From the IMG/VR virus record IMGVR_UViG_3300045988_142892: a stretch of 64,000 nt of DNA; one strand, written 5' to 3'. Under the pieces are notes generated by a model, which was not told the origin of the DNA, did no database searches, and saw only the letters and a program-made list of their open reading frames with translations. Of this stretch, positions 7,609 through 26,639 are shown piece after piece. A program made the position numbers and the translations under genes. Source of the stretch: a virus. Within the stretch, counting starts at the first letter, position 1. Each line of letters opens with the position of its first letter.

Positions 7609-7718
7609 CGCACTAAAGAGCATTATGAAAATCGCATTGCGAAGTTGTATTCCCATAGTGAAGTTATGAATCAGCGCCTCATTAATAAGATGAAGCGAAA
7701 ACTCCGTAAGTTGAATTA
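7609..7718 (+). CDS. Small basic peptide (36 aa), hypothetical
   Basis: Strong RBS taaggagaaaaattatg; MICRTKEHYENRIAKLYSHSEVMNQRLINKMKRKLRKLN. Confidence 0.35.
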
Positions 7719-7728
7719 AGGAGTTTAT

Positions 7729-7800
7729 TGAGGGGTAGCATAGCGGCAAATGCGCTGGTCTCTAAAACCAGATAAGTGGGATCGACACCCACCCCCTCCG
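7729..7800 (+). tRNA. Amber suppressor tRNA (anticodon CTA, reads UAG)
   Basis: Acceptor tgagggg/cccctcc (pair 1:72 is U-C); D-arm gcat-agcggcaa-atgc; perfect anticodon stem ctggt/accag with loop ctCTAaa (anticodon 7762-7764); T-arm gtggg-atcgaca-cccac; no CCA encoded. Consistent with the many in-frame TAGs in conserved domains. Confidence 0.7.
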
Positions 7801-8034
7801 CGGTGCTAAAAACAAAACCTCCTCGTGGTAGCACTGGGTAATGCTAATTTGTTTATAAAGGTAATAAAGGCAATATGTATAAAAGTCATTGATAAGTCCT
7901 TTTATACGATAGGAAGTAGGATTAGAAGCGTCCATCTTTTAAAGAGCGAAATGCGGCGATCGGGTATTTCCTTGGTCCAGTAGACACACTATCGGAGGTT
8001 GTGGGTTAACCTAATTAAAACCCTCAAAATAAAA

Positions 8035-8397
8035 ATGTTTGATATTTATTTAAATTATTGCGAAGAAATTTTTGGTGGTTCTCATAAGTTTACCAAAAAT
8101 GGCCTTGGTTATGATGTTTTAAATATTCATAATAATCGAGATAATTTTAAAATTATACTTGCGGATAAAGTGCGGTTTGGAGAATATACTTTATTTCATC
8201 GTGCTTATGGAGCTAGACTTGATGGTTCTTATGAGTGGCATGTCCAATTAAAATCTAAATATTTAGATTTTCTAATTTATTGTGCTTTCGCGCATGATTT
8301 TAATAAATATAATAACATTCCTTATAATCGAGAAGATTATTGGCGTTTTATTAAAGATTATAAGAAATATATTTCGGAGATTAACGTGATAAGGTAG
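8035..8397 (+). CDS. Hypothetical protein; start uncertain; 3' end overlaps the tRNA-Tyr gene
   Basis: ORF MFDIYLNYCEEIFGG...; its stop codon TAG lies inside the D-loop of the tRNA-Tyr gene. Confidence 0.35.
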   Translation: MFDIYLNYCEEIFGGSHKFTKNGLGYDVLNIHNNRDNFKIILADKVRFGEYTLFHRAYGARLDGSYEWHVQLKSKYLDFLIYCAFAHDFNKYNNIPYNREDYWRFIKDYKKYISEINVIR

Positions 8398-8983: not shown

Positions 8984-10506
8984 ATGTCATATTTTAATGC
9001 TAGTTTGGACTGTGAAAATGGTACAATATATTGCTCTGGATCAGTAGATCCTCCTGTCATTACATCAATAGAACTTTATATTCGTATTAAAATAAATGGT
9101 ATAGACTCTGGTTATATTTATGTTGGAAGCGGTTCAAACAGAATACGTTTTAATGAAGAGATTCCAAATTATGATCATGTTAACTTTGATAGTTATAATG
9201 ATTATGAATTAATAGTATTAGATGGTGATTTATATGAATTAGGTGCTTATACTCCTTGCACTGGTTCTTTTTATGCTTCATCATCGGGAGGAGGAGGAGG
9301 AGGCGGTGGATCGGGCGGAACTGATCCAATGTACGCTTGTTATGATGTTACAACTGGAAATTATATAAACGGTTGGACGCAAGGTAGTTTTGGTATGACC
9401 GCTCCCTCTTATGGTAGTAGTTATACTTATTTAGGATATTGCCCTGGTAATTCAGAATAGGAATGTTTAAATTATTATACTAATAATGGCACTACATGGA
9501 GTCAAGATTCTACTTATATAGTAGGAGATTGTAGTTATGTTATATTTTTTTATAGACAAAATTTATCTTATGCTTATATAACTTATTATTATAATGGAGG
9601 ATCTGGTAGTTATAATAATGGAGCTCAAAATGCTTTTTCAAGTACAACTCAACCTTGGAACATATATTTAGATACTCCTTCGCGCTCTGGATATAATTTT
9701 TTAGGATGGACAACAGACAATTCATCAGCTTATGTGAGTAGTCCTATACAAGCATATAATGGTTCAACTTATACATTATATGCTATGTGGTAGCGAATTT
9801 ATTATTATACCTATATAACCTATCACTATAATGGAGGATCTGGTAGTTATAGTGATGGATAGCAAGTAAGTTATTCAAGTGTCAATTCTAGTCGAACTAT
9901 TACTTTAGATACTCCAACAAGAGCAAATTATACTTTTTTAGGTTGGGGAACCAGTTCTTCTTCTGCTGATATTGGCACACAACTATAGGTGTCATCTACA
10001 AGCACTGTATATAAAACTTTATACGCAATTTGGCGTAGAAATACAATTATTGTAACTTATAATGCAAATGGAGGTTCTGGTGGACCCGGATCATAGACTG
10101 TTAATACCAATTCTTCTTTTAATATAAATGGATCTAATTTTCCAACAAAGTCTAATTATATTTTTAAAGGATGGTCTACATCGTCTTCAGCAAAAACTGC
10201 AACTTATAAAAAAGGAGCAACACCTTCAATTTCTACTGGTACATCTAATATAACTTATTATGCAGTTTGGTGGCCTGTATTTACTTGGAAAGATTATTCC
10301 AGAAGTGAAGCAAATACTTTCGCAGGATATATAAATACTTATCTAAGTAAATCAATCTCTTCTATTGATGACACAAATCCTCTGCGGTTAGTTATTTGGT
10401 TTAATGCAATAGCTACGGCATTAAACAATAATACTAGACTTGCATCAGGAGACGCAAGTTTTAAAGCACAATTAGATACTCTATTAACTGCATATAATAA
10501 TTATTA
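8984..10506 (+). CDS. Listeria-Bacteroides repeat (Flg_new-type) protein, probable virion or cell-surface adhesin; reads through 5 in-frame TAGs
   Basis: About four repeats of the pattern YNGGSGSY..G.Q....S......L.TP.R..Y.FLGW.T.......Y...Y.LYA.W; Gly-rich tract SSSGGGGGGGGSGG; TAGs at 9458, 9791, 9860, 9986 and 10094 all in frame; stop TAA at 10504; RBS aaaaaggaggaaattaaatg. Confidence 0.6.
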
Positions 10507-21943: not shown

Positions 21944-22035
21944 GCGGGGGTAGCCGAATGGCACAGGCATCGGACTTAAAATCCGCCGGCGCGATCACAT
22001 CAAACTTGGGGGTTCAAATCCCCTCTCCCGCACCA
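21944..22035 (+). tRNA. tRNA-Leu(TAA), type II
   Basis: Acceptor gcggggg/ctcccgc; anticodon stem tcgga/tccgc with loop ctTAAaa; long variable arm; T-loop ttcaaat; CCA encoded. Confidence 0.65.
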
Positions 22036-22365
22036 TTAAATAATAATAGCTAACGGCAGTTGCCTCTAATGAAAATTAGATAGACGGGTCGGGGTTGACA
22101 TAGACAGGTCAACAGGTAGTACAGCAGTAGGTAACAAATCTGCAAGTCGAAATAAGTTGGGAAAACCAAATGATACGGCTTAGTCCTTCGTAAGAAGTTG
22201 AAGAGAGATTTTAGGTAAAAGATAACAACTTTTAACTGCTCTTCGTAATTGACCATGAAACCGGGTCATAGCTACCATATTATTATTTAAGTTAATCTAA
22301 AAGGAGTGAGTCCAATGGGTTCTCGAATGGCCATCTTTTAACATCTTTTAAAGGAGGTTAAAAGA
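22036..22365 (+). ncRNA. ORF-free region of about 330 nt after tRNA-Leu; candidate structured RNA
   Basis: No ORF; hairpins gttgacatagacaggtcaac and gaccatgaaaccgggtcat; ends at an RBS aaaggaggttaaaagaatg. Confidence 0.2.
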
Positions 22366-22877: not shown

Positions 22878-23258
22878 AGTTATTAATTTGGTCTATGATA
22901 AATCGCGATGCCTGATTAATTAACTACATAGAGCCATACAGCAAATTCTTTTTACTGGGTTTCCAGTGCTATTAACTTATTTTAAGTTTCTACTAAAAAG
23001 GATTGATGTAAAATCAAATGCTTGTAGGTCTATGAGTATGATATAATAAGTAATATAAATGGTTTGGCTCTAGAATTTAAAGCCGTTTATATGAAAATTA
23101 TATTAGAAAATAGACGATTTGCTCTCTTTGGAGGATTGTTTGAAAAAACTAAAAAATTAAGAGAGCAGGTTAGATTATAAATAACTATTAAAGACGCATC
23201 CAGCAACAGATCTTTTATGTTGGTAATGAAATTTAAAAAGAAGCGCGTCTTGTTTTAC

Positions 23259-23333
23259 GCGGTTGTAGCTCAGTGGTAGAGCAGTAGCCTTTTAAGCTAT
23301 TGGCCGAGGGTTCAAGTCCCTCCAACCGCACCA
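23259..23333 (+). tRNA. tRNA-Lys(TTT)
   Basis: Acceptor gcggttg/caaccgc; anticodon stem gtagc/gctat with loop ctTTTaa; T-arm gaggg-ttcaagt-ccctc; CCA encoded. Confidence 0.7.
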
Positions 23334-23434
23334 CGTAGATATCAATCTACAAAGTTAGGCTTAACTTGAAAATATTTTATGAATCCAGCAGAAAAGAAAG
23401 TTTCTGTTGGATAAAAGCATTAGGAGGCTTTAAA

Positions 23435-23731
23435 ATGAAATTTTATTCAGAACTAACAAAGGATTTTTATGAAAGTGAAGATGCCTGTAAGCAGGCTGAA
23501 AGTAAGTTCAACAAAGAGCTTGCTGAAAAGGAAGCTAAGGAGAAGGCTTTGAAGGCTGAGCGTAAGCAGCGTGCCGAAGAGGTTAACGATGCATACAAGG
23601 CTATTAAAGAAGCTGAAAAGCATTACTGCGAACTCCGTGATCAGTTTGTAAAAGATTATGGTAGTTTCCATATGACATTTACTGATACTGGTAGTTTCTT
23701 CTTCGATCCTTTCAGATTTACTATTCTGTAA
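23435..23731 (+). CDS. Hypothetical coiled-coil protein (98 aa)
   Basis: RBS ttaggaggctttaaaatg; Lys/Glu-rich helix. Confidence 0.45.
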   Translation: MKFYSELTKDFYESEDACKQAESKFNKELAEKEAKEKALKAERKQRAEEVNDAYKAIKEAEKHYCELRDQFVKDYGSFHMTFTDTGSFFFDPFRFTIL

Positions 23732-23732
23732 T

Positions 23733-23784
23733 GAAATGCGCCGTTTCCCGTTTAACCGATCTTTTAGACGGGAAACGGCGCATT
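23733..23784 (+). terminator. Rho-independent terminator with a long stem
   Basis: aatgcgccgtttcccgtttaaccgatcttttagacgggaaacggcgcatt followed by ttcttc. Confidence 0.65.
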
Positions 23785-23796
23785 TTCTTCATATCT

Positions 23797-23873
23797 GGGC
23801 CTTTAGCTTAGTTGGTTAGAACAGCCAGCTCATAACCGGCCGGTCCCGGGTTCGAGTCCCCGAAGGCCCACCA
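23797..23873 (+). tRNA. tRNA(CAT), third Met/Ile2-type gene
   Basis: Acceptor gggcctt/aaggccc; anticodon loop ctCATaa; T-arm ccggg-ttcgagt-ccccg; CCA encoded. Confidence 0.65.
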
Positions 23874-23885
23874 ATAAAAAATTTT

Positions 23886-23914
23886 TTGATTTTTTCAAAA
23901 AAATATATTATAAT
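23886..23914 (+). promoter_or_regulatory. Conserved phage promoter, sigma70-like
   Basis: ttgatt at 23886-23891, 17-nt spacer, tataat at 23909-23914. Confidence 0.5.
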
Positions 23915-23947
23915 ATTTATATCAAATGAAAAAGGAGAAAAAAAATT

Positions 23948-24763
23948 ATGCCTTCTAATTCTCGTGCTGAAAATCAGTATTATGGTAAGTATCGTGAGTG
24001 TTGTGTTGTTGCTCATCTGAACAACACTGAGGTTGAATATCATGAGAACTTTGTTTTCACAACGGAAGAGAAGACTCTCCTTTCCAGTGAAGCAAAGCTC
24101 ATTGCCGATTTCCTTGGTGATCATACCGCAACCTATCTCGGCAATCACACTGCTAATGAATCTGGCGATATCCTTTTGGACAATGGTGAAGTTGTTGAAA
24201 TTAAAACTGTAAGTGCTGGTTCTGGTACTTATTTCAATACTTCCATTTATTATTTTGATAAATTCGGTTTTAATTTTAAGGACTACATGGAATCTTGTGG
24301 TTTATATGATGCACTGGAGAAAAACTTTGGAGATATTGTTAAGATTAACCGTAAAACTAAATCTCCTGTAAGCCAGCCCAATTCTTCCTTGATCCGGCAT
24401 AATTACGAAGAGTTATACAAGGAAACTATTGTTCCTGTTGATACAGCGATGCGAATGAAATTTACTCAGGATATTGCTGATTTCTTTGCTAATAATCCTG
24501 ACCGAGTTTATGAATTTATTACTGATATGCTGGAAAAAAACAGCTCTACCAGTAAGAAAACTAGTCCTGATCGTCTAATTGTTCTTAACTATAATAAGAA
24601 CAAAGTTAGAGAAATTGACCTTAAGAATTTTAAGGATAATATTTCTACTCACATTCGAGCAACAGAAAAGGGCCTGGTCGTTGGTAATGTGCGTGTTGCT
24701 TTTAGCTGGCAGAATGGCGTAGGTTTGAATAATCCTACAATTAGAGCATTTTTGGAGGATTAA
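23948..24763 (+). CDS. Putative PD-(D/E)xK-type restriction-endonuclease-like protein
   Basis: Candidate catalytic motif GDILLDNGEVVEIK (D...E.K); directly upstream of a DNA methyltransferase. Confidence 0.4.
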   Translation: MPSNSRAENQYYGKYRECCVVAHLNNTEVEYHENFVFTTEEKTLLSSEAKLIADFLGDHTATYLGNHTANESGDILLDNGEVVEIKTVSAGSGTYFNTSIYYFDKFGFNFKDYMESCGLYDALEKNFGDIVKINRKTKSPVSQPNSSLIRHNYEELYKETIVPVDTAMRMKFTQDIADFFANNPDRVYEFITDMLEKNSSTSKKTSPDRLIVLNYNKNKVREIDLKNFKDNISTHIRATEKGLVVGNVRVAFSWQNGVGLNNPTIRAFLED

Positions 24764-24764
24764 T

Positions 24765-25616
24765 ATGGGTTTAGACAAATTTTATACATAGGACCATGTA
24801 GCAAGACATTGTTTTGAATTTTTACATTAGAAATTAAATATAGCCGATTCGGCTATTTATCTTGAACCAAGTGCCGGAGCAGGTTCATTTATTAATCTGT
24901 TAAATCATTATGTAGCTTTAGATATTGCTCCAGAGGATGATCGAATTACACAGTAGGATTACCTAGTTTATGAAACAGATAGAACTAATTTTATCACAAT
25001 TGGTAATCCACCTTTTGGTTCTCGATCTAAGTTAGCAATTGATTTTTTCAATAAGGCTGCGACTATGTCTGATGTAATTGCTTTTATTGTTCCTGTTTCA
25101 TTTATGAAATGGAGTGTACAGAAAAATTTAAGTTCTAATTTCGCACTTCATAGTTATACTTATTTGGAGCCTGAATCTTTCTCCTCTAATGGAGAGCCTT
25201 ATAGTGTACGCACTGTATTTCAGATTTGGGTTAAAAAAGGCAGTCAATATGATAATGGAGTTAATCTTCGTCTAACAAGGCAGCCCCCTATTTCCCATCC
25301 CGACTTTGAAATTTGGCAGTATAATGCTACTCCAGAAGCAGTAAAGTATGTGGAAGAGGATTGGAAATATGCCACATATCGTCAAGGTTATCACGATTAT
25401 AATCAAATCTTTACCCGCGATGATTATGATCATATTAAAGAAAAAATGACAGGAACTAAGAAACAGCAATTTTTCTTTATTAAACCTTTATCTGCTGAAG
25501 CAGAAAAATTAATTTTGACTATGGATTTTAATGCTTTAGCTGAAAGAAATACTGCTACTCCTGGGTTCGGTAAGGGCGATTTTGTTAGTTATTATACTGA
25601 ATTAAAGGAGAATTAA
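24765..25616 (+). CDS. N6-adenine DNA methyltransferase; reads through 3 in-frame TAGs
   Basis: Motif I LEPSAGAGSF and motif IV GNPPFGS; the ATG at 24765 shares a frame with track ORF 25065-25616; TAGs at 24786, 24837 and 24951. Confidence 0.65.
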
Positions 25617-25617
25617 A

Positions 25618-26625
25618 ATGGATATTCCTCTATCAACTTATAGCTTTAAAAATGTTGGATATAATTTAGAATCAATTTTATTATTTTATCAATCTAATAG
25701 AATTGATACAGATCTAGATTGTCAACGAGGCTACGTTTGGACTTCTGAACAAAAACAACAATTAATTGATACTTTAATTAATCGAGAAAGAATTCCAGAA
25801 TTTCATGTAATTAAAGAGGCGGATGAAGCAATTTTTCATTTCGCTGATGGAAAACAAAGAATTACTACAATTCTTAATTTTTTATCTGGTAAGTTATCCT
25901 GGGAAAAAAGTCAAGCTGATTCTAAATTTAAGGAATTATTTGGTAAAGACAATAAACTTTTCTTTTCTGATCTTCCTGAAAATTTTTAGAATATGATTTT
26001 AGATACAGAGTTACAATTTGCTTGTTATAGTAATATGACTCCAGCTTCTACTACAAAATTATTTAGAAAATTAAATAGTGGAACTGCTCTTGGTGAATTT
26101 CAAAAAGGACTCGCTGAAAATATTACTATTAAGTAGTATTTTTTAAATACATTAATGGATCATCCTGTAATTCAAAAGATTTTTTCTACTTCTAAAATAG
26201 AAAAAGGAAATGCTGAACAAGCTTTAATCAGATTAATGATTTTAATGAAAAATTTGGATGATAATATTAATATTGAATGTGATTTAACTCCTCCAAATTT
26301 AAAAAATTACTATCTTAATCTTGAGGGAGCATCTGAAGAAGAATCTTATCAGTGGATTTAGATTTTAGATATTTATCAGAAAAAGATTAAAAAGTATCTT
26401 GATTGGCTAAATACTTATACTAATTTAAATTTAAGCACTCGATCTGATTATGTTTTTTTATTTAGTACATTTTTTACTTATAAAAATAATGGCGATGAAG
26501 AATATTTAAAAATGCTTTTTGAAACTCTTAATGGAATAAGCGCTGGCTCTATAGTTGGATCTGGTTCTGATTACAGCAAAACAAATGTTAAAAAGTATTT
26601 AGAATATATTTCTAATTTAGCTTAA
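25618..26625 (+). CDS. DUF262 (ParB-like / GmrSD N-terminal nuclease domain) protein; reads through 3 in-frame TAGs
   Basis: QRGYVWTSEQKQQLIDTL...FADGKQRITTI matches the DUF262 DGQQR signature; track ORFs 25618 and 26155 share one frame; TAGs at 25987, 26134 and 26359; stop TAA at 26623. Confidence 0.55.
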
Positions 26626-26639
26626 AATAAAGATCTTAA

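Follow-up and report, generated by a model that had tools for sequence, protein, structure and literature searches.

We propose that two adjacent genes of a large, tRNA-rich, gut-type phage probably form a type IIP restriction-modification module, a predicted endonuclease with its cognate N6-adenine methyltransferase, that spares the phage's own methylated DNA, and that the DUF262 gene immediately behind them is a separate element. The genes lie in a 64,000-nt stretch of viral DNA (IMGVR_UViG_3300045988_142892; hereafter the window), and we refer to them as A (23948-24763), B (24765-25616) and C (25618-26625).

Gene layout and transcription

The three open reading frames were found next to one another on the plus strand, as a preliminary description of this DNA had placed them. 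They are tightly packed and flanked by two tRNA genes, with the following features:

23736..23783, plus strand: strong terminator-like hairpin (20-bp stem, then a T run) that closes the upstream unit, just 5' of tRNA-Met
23797..23873, plus strand: tRNA-Met (CAT), left border of the slot holding A, B and C
23886..23914, plus strand: sigma-70-like promoter (TTGATT-17-TATAAT), directly 5' of A
23948..24763, plus strand: A, 271 aa, protein with a PD-(D/E)xK core and putatively a type IIP restriction endonuclease, no in-frame TAG
24765..25616, plus strand: B, putative type II N6-adenine DNA methyltransferase with gamma-type motif order, 283 aa, assigned from profile matches and motifs
25618..26625, plus strand: C, ParB/DUF262 NTPase-type domain followed by an all-helical C-terminal domain, 335 aa, no nuclease domain
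26640..26668, plus strand: next promoter, of the same class as that at 23886-23914, at the end of the A-B-C transcription unit
26776..26852, plus strand: tRNA-Cys (GCA), right border of the slot

A single base separates A from B (TAAtATG) and B from C (TAAaATG), and an AGGAG-type ribosome-binding site lies ahead of each gene. Given these one-base gaps, and given that one promoter stands 5' of A and the next one 3' of C, we predict that the three genes are one operon transcribed from the promoter at 23886-23914. Promoters of this class occur in about 20 copies on the plus strand of the window, and the extended motif has 23 matches where 1.0 is expected.

The slot that holds A, B and C among the tRNA genes is variable. 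A nucleotide search of positions 23000-28500 against 50,697 cultured-phage records returned no match. We considered whether the genome might physically end just 5' of A, making A its first gene, as five contigs begin about 400 nt 5' of A, and rejected this. All five break within a 14-15 nt tandem repeat, which is an ordinary assembly break, and we therefore claim no terminus.

Gene A encodes a putative monomeric restriction endonuclease

The candidate catalytic residues of A are E17 (23996-23998), D74 (24167-24169), E84 (24197-24199) and K86 (24203-24205), all of which are invariant across 36 homologues with identities down to 46%. In an AlphaFold2 model of the protein (pLDDT 90, pTM 0.84), D74 begins a strand, E84-x-K86 lies on the next strand and E17 is located within helix 1. 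The model has a two-sheet fold, in which a catalytic sheet is accompanied by a second, C-terminal sheet with a conserved loop joining its last two strands, and its best structural matches are the monomeric restriction enzymes HinP1I and MspI. Structure prediction had been named beforehand as the check on the description of A as PD-(D/E)xK nuclease-like, and with a predicted nuclease fold and an invariant core that description holds. The motif given for it, D..EVK, is present as D74...E84-I-K86, although the wording of the triplet needs correction, the conserved form being E-I/L-K.

HinP1I, MspI and HhaI have been described as one class of monomeric enzymes, in which a catalytic sheet is paired with a sheet for recognition (PMC7026639). 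R.HinP1I (G^CGC, PDB 1ynm) and R.MspI (C^CGG, PDB 1sa3) are similar in length to A (241-262 aa, compared with 271 aa) and, like A, carry an N-terminal helix followed by consecutive strands that hold a PD-(D/E)xK-type active site. HinP1I uses the loop that links strands 9 and 10 as a recognition loop; the conserved loop of the A model also joins the last two strands, and its invariant sequence, WQNGxGLNNPTIR, is the probable DNA-recognition element of A. In contrast to these structural likenesses, A has no detectable sequence similarity to either enzyme (aligned identity 11-15%), and the motif lysine, which is replaced by N in MspI according to a review, is retained in A as part of a canonical E-x-K. 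From its model we place A, as a putative small PD-(D/E)xK endonuclease, in the structural class of MspI and HinP1I, and by analogy with these enzymes it probably works as a monomer, nicking the two strands in turn at a short palindromic site.

Neither the single sequence of A nor a profile built from it matched an entry in Pfam, NCBIfam, PHROGs, PADLOC or the PDB sequences; a match to Symplekin_C fell below the cut-off and was dismissed. A protein search with A against the 50,697 cultured-phage records gave no match, and a search of a viral structure library returned only uncharacterised proteins and no relationship to a chlorovirus enzyme. The family is thus unnamed in any of the family libraries searched (Pfam, NCBIfam, PHROGs and PADLOC), and it is small, with 181 cluster representatives among 1.84 billion proteins. 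If active, A would represent a new restriction enzyme family, probably recognising a short adenine-containing site, with its cognate methylase at hand.

Gene B encodes a predicted N6-adenine methyltransferase linked to A

The motifs of B are, in order:

residues 6-9: FYT(Q)
residues 34-42 (24864-24890): motif I, EPSAGAGSF
residues 81-84 (25005-25016): motif IV, NPPF

About 200 residues after NPPF make up the C-terminal target-recognition region. EPSAGAGSF and NPPF are invariant among homologues of B, and the protein matches the PADLOC MTase_II model PDLC03274 over its full length (E 5e-56) as well as phrog_799, a DNA methyltransferase family. Its best match among solved structures is M.TaqI (TCGA), to which the family profile aligns over motifs I and IV, although weakly (E 0.04). 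M.TaqI and other gamma-class enzymes share the motif order of B, in which an FYT(Q/P)-type motif at the N terminus precedes LEPxxGxGxF as motif I, NPPF/Y as motif IV and a C-terminal target-recognition domain; M.TaqI is much longer, at 421 aa compared with 283 aa. From these motifs and profile matches we classify B as a predicted type II N6-adenine-type DNA methyltransferase, in agreement with the preliminary description, which had pointed to SAGAGSF and NPPF. Since the partners of R.HinP1I and R.MspI are C5-cytosine methyltransferases whereas B is of the N6-adenine type, a site shared by A and B would have to contain adenine.

Searches of Pfam and NCBIfam with B returned no match, an EndoS_Ig-like hit below the cut-off being dismissed, and its best annotated relatives share at most 38% identity and carry generic labels. 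Neither these searches nor a cluster look-up yielded a close, named homologue whose site is known. Among the annotations listed for its matches in cultured phages, DNA methyltransferase or N6-adenine methyltransferase is common. Relatives of B in a Helicobacter phage and in Mycoplasmopsis adjoin a different PD..ExK protein, which points to a role for this methyltransferase family in restriction-modification pairs. We asked whether these neighbours are relatives of A; a test with the A profile was negative, and they belong to a separate PD..ExK family.

A and B are linked across lineages and constitute a conserved unit. In 34 of 39 fetched loci that carry A, with A identities of 27-82%, B lies 3' of A at a distance of 4-25 nt, and this adjacency persists in loci where A is only 27-47% identical to that of the window. 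The surroundings of the pair differ between lineages, with an endolysin gene in L003 compared with tRNA genes and a DUF2828 gene in the window; the relatives are drawn from ENA assemblies, ERZ27287399 and ERZ15609836 among them. Of the five exceptions, three have B at another place on the same contig, and on some contigs about 80 kb separate the two genes. The A and B domains also occur fused in frame, in a single database protein. The C-terminal loop of A is strictly conserved and B is well conserved, which would fit one fixed specificity shared by the two proteins.

TAG is predicted to be read as glutamine

Translation of B and C is predicted to depend on a suppressor tRNA. The features concerned are:

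7729..7801, plus strand: suppressor tRNA, anticodon CUA
24789-24791, 24828-24830 and 24954-24956: in-frame TAG at codons 9, 22 and 64 of B
25987-25989, 26134-26136 and 26359-26361: in-frame TAG at codons 124, 173 and 248 of C

With three in-frame TAG codons in each, B and C both need read-through, as had been recognised earlier. Five of these six positions are glutamine in close homologues, and codons 9 and 64 of B fall on a conserved Q. Of the 57 long open reading frames in the window as a whole, 19 contain in-frame TAG, and long-ORF coverage rises from 0.56 to 0.71 once TAG is read as sense. The tRNA-CUA carries a U1-C72 mismatch, G73, U35 and A37, which we take to be glutamine identity elements. 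From the presence of this tRNA, the glutamines at five of six homologous positions and the gain in coverage, we conclude that TAG is predicted to encode glutamine in this phage (genetic code 15). Gene callers set to the standard code would break B and C into pieces and would then overlook the methylase beside A, which would look like a hypothetical protein on its own.

Gene C encodes a separable DUF262 protein

In the protein encoded by C, a ParB/DUF262 NTPase-type domain (residues ~9-195) is followed by an all-helical C-terminal domain (residues ~198-335). Its motifs are:

residues 36-41: QRgyVW
residues 77-81 (25846-25860): DGKQR, within DGKQRITT (residues 77-84)
residues 149-155: FRKLNsG

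These correspond to the QRxxxW, DG(Q/K)QR and F..LN.G motifs of the type IV DUF262-DUF1524 proteins GmrSD, BrxU and SspE, with which C shares the DUF262 fold. C matches Pfam GmrSD_N with 57.5 bits (cut-off 33.2), over residues 34-191 only, and the best structural matches of C, modelled on a 98% identical stand-in (P0241), are BrxU and SspE, which have 560-590 aa compared with 335 aa in C. Those proteins carry a DUF1524 His-Me finger nuclease; C has no Pfam match to DUF1524, its C-terminal 140 residues are all-helical, and the sole nearly invariant residue of its last 70 is G316. Thus the DUF262/GmrSD_N half of the earlier GmrSD/DUF262-like assignment stands and the DUF1524 half is absent. As C lacks that nuclease half it is neither a complete GmrSD nor, in its present form, a restriction enzyme, and the suggested attack on modified DNA, if assigned to C alone, is unsupported.

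The best PADLOC match of C is NsnA (E 7e-18). In the Menshen system NsnA, a DUF262 domain with a helical DNA-binding domain, is encoded beside NsnB (an ABC ATPase) and NsnC (an effector) (PMC12065111). C resembles NsnA and DndB in this plan of DUF262 plus helical domain without a nuclease (PMC12065111), and the most likely activity of C is NTP-dependent DNA binding or sensing. C differs from NsnA and DndB in being phage-encoded and in its company: no NsnB, NsnC or dnd gene lies beside it, its neighbours being B and a DUF2828 gene, and its relatives are free-standing insertions, some of them fused to GIY-YIG.

The preliminary description had treated A, B and C as a functional trio; what we found is a conserved pair with a separable third gene, C being missing from most A-B loci. 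In L056 a homologue of C stands alone between RecJ-like and PolC genes, and in L058 a GIY-YIG-fused homologue lies between gyrB and gyrA, in both cases in unrelated phage surroundings with neither A nor B nearby. Between L054 and the window, identity is 82% for A and 81% for B but only 45% for C, which indicates that C has a separate history. These distributions indicate that C is separable from A-B and belongs to a family of stand-alone accessory genes that moves from one phage genome to another. More speculatively, the DUF262-only gene C and its relatives fused to GIY-YIG, which lie between essential phage genes, may constitute a novel class of mobile genes, free-standing and of homing type.

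A proposed restriction-modification module and the timing of its parts

We consider it likely that A and B together act as a phage-borne type IIP restriction-modification module, with C standing apart. A, as the predicted monomeric endonuclease for a short palindromic site, would be paired with B as the cognate N6-adenine methyltransferase that marks this site on phage DNA. Virion DNA would enter the cell already methylated and hence immune to A, which would cut whatever DNA of the infected cell is unmethylated, be it the chromosome of the host or the DNA of rival phages and plasmids. B would then re-methylate newly replicated phage DNA. The window is depleted in several palindromes (observed/expected: CTAG 0.39, TGCA 0.52, GTAC 0.56); we did not use this depletion as a clue to the site and do not tie it to A, since phage DNA would be self-methylated.

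The balance of A to B would decide between self-protection and attack. B carries three TAG codons and A none, so B would depend on the glutamine-inserting tRNA-CUA and would be expected to be made later, or in smaller amount, than A. The absence of TAG from A in the window was rejected as evidence, because A has only four glutamine codons there, about 0.5 TAG is expected, and zero is not significant; only the comparison across lineages carries weight. Across 21 lineages, TAG accounts for 0 of 185 glutamine codons in A and 17 of 270 in B, a contrast that our own hypergeometric estimate from these counts places at a chance probability of roughly 1e-3 to 1e-4, although the lineages share ancestry and the background estimate includes spurious ORFs, both of which affect the comparison. 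The TAG codons of B reflect about 13 independent gains, and the one at codon 9, present in five lineages, is old.

It had been suggested that B and C can be expressed only once the amber-reading tRNA is available. The dependence on TAG decoding stands; a strict switch is weakened, because the suppressor tRNA region has the same promoter class as the A-B-C operon, which makes a clean temporal gate unlikely. TAG-bearing genes of the window are also scattered, grouping neither into a late block nor by gene class. Instead of switching translation on, TAG may reduce or postpone it.

A tentative and rather doubtful extension is that amber codons built into the reading frame delay or attenuate translation and thereby turn round the order that is usual in restriction-modification operons. 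If so, A, which is free of TAG in every lineage, would be translated by the unmodified host machinery, and synthesis of B would be tied to the suppressor tRNA and to its competition with release factor 1. The methylation already present on incoming phage DNA would keep it safe, cutting of host DNA would precede any protection of it, and the methylase would arrive in time for phage replication. Chloroviruses package restriction enzymes and not methyltransferases, and degrade host DNA within 5 minutes of infection (PMC7019647). Their pairs (CviAII and CviQI, for example) resemble A-B, as we propose it to act, in having adjacent virus-encoded restriction enzyme and methyltransferase genes, short sites, methylated viral DNA and a nuclease that acts ahead of the methylase. 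They differ in that the host is a eukaryotic alga and in that the nuclease gains its advantage from virion packaging, not from codon usage; an amber delay, if true, would be the translational counterpart of that packaging.

Recoding has been proposed as a way of holding back harmful proteins, a homing endonuclease among them, up to a late stage of infection (Borges et al., bioRxiv 10.1101/2021.08.26.457843). The gut phages of that study are like the window in reading TAG as glutamine through a phage suppressor tRNA and in having in-frame stops in some genes only. In the window, by contrast, the recoded gene is the one for the protective methyltransferase and the unrecoded gene the one for the potentially harmful nuclease, both in one operon, an arrangement absent from that paper. 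A TAG-free A and a TAG-bearing B in one operon thus offer a concrete test case for recoding as a regulator of timing or dosage. Complete restriction-modification pairs are rarely described in large, tRNA-rich, code-15 phages, and such pairs bear on host takeover by these phages and on competition among them.

Alternative explanations

One alternative, which we think unlikely, is that A, B and C are a single three-part system in which C acts as a modification-state sensor or regulator with nuclease A, as a type IV-like partner or a DndB-like regulator of the A-B pair. The shared promoter and one-base gaps would fit such a system, as would the order A-B-C-D, which recurs in four lineages (the window, L006, L053 and L054/L055), with C only 45-54% identical; in GmrSD and SspE it is the DUF262 domain that senses modified DNA, and the two-domain plan is shared by DndB (PMC12065111). 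Against this stand the majority of A-B loci, which lack C, the homologues of C in L056 and L058 with neither partner nearby, and the low identity of C in L054 beside a well-conserved A and B. It is still less probable, in our judgement, that B is an orphan anti-restriction methyltransferase shielding phage DNA from host enzymes and A an unrelated nuclease of recombination, repair or homing that is not cognate to B. Orphan methyltransferases are common in phages, many of the cultured-phage matches of B with a listed annotation are labelled as a DNA or N6-adenine methyltransferase, A matches no named restriction enzyme family in sequence, and some contigs hold the two genes about 80 kb apart. 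However, A and B remain tightly adjacent down to 27% identity of A and in varied neighbourhoods, a fusion of the two exists, the best structural matches of A are type IIP restriction enzymes and not recombination or repair nucleases, and the conservation of the A loop and of B fits a single specificity.

A cognate A-B pair, which is the reading that we prefer, might also be kept for reasons other than the breakdown of host DNA. It is possible, although we do not think it probable, that the pair persists as a selfish, addictive or competition module (through superinfection exclusion or post-segregational killing) and that the TAG contrast is a by-product of composition and ancestry. A-B occurs in varied genomic neighbourhoods and moves as a unit, and in the window the slot that it occupies among tRNA genes is variable; glutamine codons are few in A, and TAG use in the window is patchy and unrelated to gene class. 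This explanation is at odds with the cross-lineage contrast in TAG between A and B and with the repeated gains of TAG in B, which chance would rarely produce, and with the precedent of the chloroviruses, whose virus-encoded restriction enzymes break down host DNA and do not account for mutual exclusion (PMC7019647).

Organization of the gene block

When genes at 23948-26625 were called with only TAA and TGA as stops, we obtained three tightly packed genes: A (putative PD-(D/E)xK nuclease), B (methyltransferase) and C (DUF262-type). One base separates each stop from the next start, and every gene has an AGGAG-like ribosome-binding site.

Features of the A-B-C block
23736-23783: 20-bp terminator hairpin that ends the upstream unit
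23797-23873: tRNA-Met, left border
23886-23914: sigma-70-like promoter TTGATT-17-TATAAT, immediately 5' of A
23948-24763, + strand: gene A, 271 aa, no in-frame TAG
24765-25616, + strand: gene B, 283 aa, in-frame TAG at codons 9, 22 and 64
25618-26625, + strand: gene C, 335 aa, in-frame TAG at codons 124, 173 and 248
26640-26668: next promoter of the same class, immediately 3' of C
26776-26852: tRNA-Cys, right border

From this arrangement, A-B-C appears to be transcribed as a single unit. All coding in the window is on the + strand, G+C is ~33%, and ARAGORN detected 21 tRNA genes, one of which (7729-7801) has the anticodon CUA. An extra tRNA at 1215-1290 (+; 39.1 bits), not in the ARAGORN output, was found with Rfam. 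As 23 matches to an extended promoter motif were counted across the window where 1.0 was expected, almost exclusively on the + strand, we conclude that the motif is a real promoter class (consensus TTGA(T/C)(T/A)TTTT-N13-TATAAT), with ~20 sites (for example 354, 3884, 5914, 6677, 20328, 21537, 21723, 22684, 23886, 26640, 28475, 31096, 34749, 38138, 39076, 40156, 53188 and 56779). Its presence 5' of tRNA clusters as well as protein genes suggests that much of this region is driven by a host-type RNA polymerase. MAG bins hint weakly at a host in Clostridia, and the promoters and ribosome-binding sites are of a kind that would fit such a host.

TAG is read as glutamine

We conclude that TAG encodes glutamine in the window, as in code 15. 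In an alignment of 17 sequences, codons 9 and 64 of gene B fall at positions where at least 90% have glutamine (for codon 9, the glutamine of the N-terminal FYTQ motif), and codon 22 is at a variable position; P0241, a protein 98% identical to C, has glutamine at 3/3 of the TAG positions of C. Taking TAG as sense raised long-ORF coverage of the window from 0.56 to 0.71, with in-frame TAG in 19 of 57 long ORFs (54 of 16,446 codons). The tRNA-CUA adopts a cloverleaf fold and carries a U1-C72 mismatch, G73, U35 and A37, features that we take to resemble glutamine identity elements.

Gene A is a putative restriction enzyme

Gene A had no match in Pfam, NCBIfam, PHROGs or PADLOC, none among PDB sequences with either a single-sequence or a profile query, and no protein match in 50,697 phage records. 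A word-indexed search recovered 144 unnamed homologues, many from contigs of 110-194 kb, and the family is small, since an exhaustive profile search of 1.84 billion proteins yielded only 181 cluster representatives. E17, D74, E84 and K86 do not vary among 36 sequences of 46% identity or more, and neither do W254, N256, G257, G259, L260 and N262, together with P263 and R266, in a C-terminal loop (WQNGxGLNNPTIR).

A confident AlphaFold2 model built on the 36-sequence alignment (pLDDT 90.1, pTM 0.84) places E17 in the first helix, D74 at a strand start and E84-x-K86 in the following strand, which in the model is the classical PD-(D/E)xK active-site layout. With this arrangement in place, the possibility that structure prediction would reveal no nuclease fold falls away, and the nuclease-like character claimed for A in the preliminary description is confirmed at the level of the predicted fold. 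HinP1I, MspI and HhaI form a structural class of monomeric enzymes with a catalytic sheet and a recognition sheet, and the HinP1I recognition loop sits between strands 9 and 10 (PMC7026639; PMC4081073). In the model of A, the final two strands of the second sheet flank the invariant loop, whose position we read as equivalent to that of the HinP1I loop. By its model, A is of the same structural kind as MspI and HinP1I, but it is no sequence-level member of any named family. In one homologue (P0117, 279 aa), the first ~60 residues are replaced by an XRE-type helix-turn-helix (HTH_19, E 5.5e-12), which recalls restriction-modification controller proteins; the source is a single short contig, and a chimera is possible.

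Gene B is a predicted N6-adenine methyltransferase

For gene B, PADLOC gave a full-length match to the type II methyltransferase model PDLC03274 (E 5e-56) and matches to three more MTase_II models. B also matched the DNA methyltransferase family phrog_799, and had no match in Pfam or NCBIfam. The best solved relative of the family profile was M.TaqI, a weak match (E 0.04) that brings motif I (LEPxxGxGxF) and motif IV (GNPPF/YG) into register. Its motifs run FYTQ, EPSAGAGSF, NPPF, followed by ~200 residues; such an order is that of the gamma class, and a motif IV of the form NPPF is of the adenine-N6 type. B is accordingly annotated as a predicted gamma-type N6-adenine methyltransferase, in agreement with the activity first assigned to it.

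Two distant relatives of B, in Helicobacter phage Pt11470_1 (38% identity) and Mycoplasmopsis cynos (33%), adjoin a PD..ExK protein with a canonical YPDFLV...EIKFS motif (4363-5094 of locus L027 and 2708-3496 of L028, respectively). These neighbors, annotated only as hypothetical, are homologous to each other and not to A, and are probably an unrecognized restriction enzyme family. As the nuclease neighbors differ, the B family appears from gene content to act in restriction-modification pairs with different nucleases as partners.

In several relatives a second methyltransferase, a paralog of B with a catalytic N-terminal half 37-43% identical and a different C-terminal half, follows shortly after B (L001, 10231-11049; L003, ~9641-10435; L011 and L014, ~7686-8141; L053, 9037-9810); no second B-type copy was found in the 64-kb window. 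B also contains, in the stretch from TAG codon 22 to TAG codon 64, a perfect 7-bp palindromic hairpin (24840-24856, ATAGCCGATTCGGCTAT), flagged as terminator-like on both strands by a scan. It could add polarity when ribosomes halt at the upstream TAGs, or be due to chance.

Genes A and B form a predicted cognate pair

Related loci were fetched through homologues of A, B and C from encoding contigs, species-representative genomes and IMG/VR, and their genes were placed by tblastn. In 34 of the 39 fetched loci with A, 4-25 nt separate A from the start of B; identity to the genes of the window is 27-82% for A and 55-86% for B. The surroundings also differ: the pair comes after a CHAP/SH3 endolysin gene in L003-L005, and in the window, L001, L006, L053 and L054 it is surrounded by tRNA genes, with a DUF2828 gene downstream. 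One library representative (P0386, 566 aa) is an uninterrupted fusion of an A-type domain (3-273) and a PDLC03274-type methyltransferase (275-563). The protein sequence has no visible break at the junction (…PTIRAFLDEKLLNKGVDQFYT…), but the fusion may reflect a read-through gene call. Cognate pairs are usually recognized in genomes by adjacency that persists across divergence and context, and by fusion; because both are seen here, A and B appear to be one unit.

A stands alone near the contig start in five loci (L007, L018-L020 and L025), and three of these five contigs carry B as well, at a distance of ~80 kb (L046, L049 and L050). All five contigs start ~400 nt upstream of the A homologue, within a tandem repeat of a 14-15 nt unit (AGAAAAAAAAGTATT; positions 1-500). 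These starts probably reflect an assembly break at the repeat, the alternative being a real genome end.

Species-representative genomes gave only three matches, all short MAG contigs (3.3-13.6 kb), and one of these, L006, has the phage synteny A-B-C-D (D being the next gene downstream); a bacterial reservoir of the pair is therefore without support among these genomes. In the features that could be checked, the predicted proteins fit a type II restriction-modification system, and we propose that A-B is an unannotated, putative restriction enzyme family with its methylase in a large code-15 phage.

In such a system, A would cut a short adenine-containing palindrome in unmethylated DNA and B would methylate the same site, so that methylated virion DNA would be immune and the host chromosome or competing DNA would be the target. 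The closest functional precedent is in chloroviruses, which have adjacent restriction enzyme and methyltransferase genes used for host-DNA degradation and package the restriction enzymes, not the methyltransferases, in virions (PMC7019647).

Gene C is a separable accessory gene

Gene C matched Pfam GmrSD_N (PF03235) at residues 34-191 (57.5 bits, cut-off 33.2), with no match to DUF1524 in Pfam. Its PADLOC matches (NsnA, E 7e-18; PD-T4-2_A; one REase_II model) cover the N-terminal half only. The residues invariant in 36 homologues (Q36, R37, V40, W41; D77-G-K-Q-R81; F149, L152, N153, G155, L158; H182) make up the three DUF262 motifs, and the C-terminal 140 residues are poorly conserved. In a model built on P0241 (pLDDT 91), the N-terminal domain is alpha/beta and the C-terminal domain all-helical. 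C is thus predicted to have a ParB/DUF262 NTPase-type domain but no His-Me nuclease, whereas GmrSD, BrxU and SspE are restriction enzymes by virtue of that nuclease. Of the original label, GmrSD/DUF262-like, the DUF262 part holds, and membership of GmrSD fails because the DUF1524 domain is missing. NsnA and DndB have been described with the same two-domain plan (PMC12065111); the Menshen partners are absent beside C.

The order A-B-C-D occurs in the window, L006, L053 and L054/L055, and most A-B loci have no C. Identity between L054 and the window is 82% for A and 81% for B, and only 45% for C. In a 137-kb phage (L056), a lone C homologue is flanked by a RecJ-like and a PolC gene. In L058 (5001-6326; also P0298-P0303), a C-related protein of 441 aa with an N-terminal GIY-YIG domain fused to DUF262 has its gene flanked by gyrB-like and gyrA-like topoisomerase genes, and resembles a homing-type endonuclease that is free-standing and carries a DUF262 module. 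We infer that such placement, between essential genes and with the gene present in some relatives and missing from others, is typical of free-standing mobile endonuclease genes. Given its absence from most A-B loci, its own identity level and its lone or fused occurrence elsewhere, C is a separable accessory gene in a variable slot and no obligate third component, and the restriction-modification-like trio of the preliminary description is better read as a conserved pair plus a separable gene.

TAG codons are confined to the methyltransferase of the pair

Over 21 lineages, TAG accounts for 0 of 185 glutamine codons in A and 17 of 270 in B. The window, L001, L006, L010 and L054 share a TAG at codon 9 of B, and the remaining TAGs are at scattered positions, which implies ~13 independent gains. 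If TAGs were random among the glutamine codons of A and B, the chance of all falling in B would be ~1e-3 to 1e-4 by our own hypergeometric estimate, which is to be read with the shared ancestry of the lineages, the glutamine-poor composition of A and background rates inflated by spurious ORFs in mind; within the window alone, the absence of TAG from A is not statistically significant.

Expression of the TAG-containing genes had been claimed to await the amber-reading tRNA. The dependence itself stands for B, which without read-through ends after 8 residues and whose longest internal restart lacks motifs I and IV. A strict switch is less likely: since the suppressor tRNA region shares its promoter class with the A-B-C operon, TAG would more plausibly lower or delay B than switch it on. 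Recoding has been proposed as a translational timer, homing endonuclease included (bioRxiv 10.1101/2021.08.26.457843); here, in contrast, the recoded partner would be the protective one, B. It is a possible though rather doubtful reading, and no finding, that stop-codon recoding sets the balance between restriction enzyme and methylase.

Other features of the region

A RAGATH-33 RNA (22049-22177, +; 126.8 bits, gathering score 120.4) lies directly 3' of tRNA-Leu (21944-22035) within the tRNA-rich region. Gene D (26889-28424, +), kept downstream of A-B(-C) in several relatives, encodes a DUF2828/DUF7788 protein with a DTSGS motif (phrog_850, 'RNA-binding protein', E 5e-133), and an RNA ligase gene (phrog_968, 35173-36552) lies 7 kb beyond it. 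Together with the many tRNA genes, these may serve RNA or tRNA maintenance. Across the whole window, CTAG, TGCA and GTAC are rarer than expected (observed/expected 0.39, 0.52 and 0.56; z -5 to -7), which may reflect avoidance of host restriction sites.
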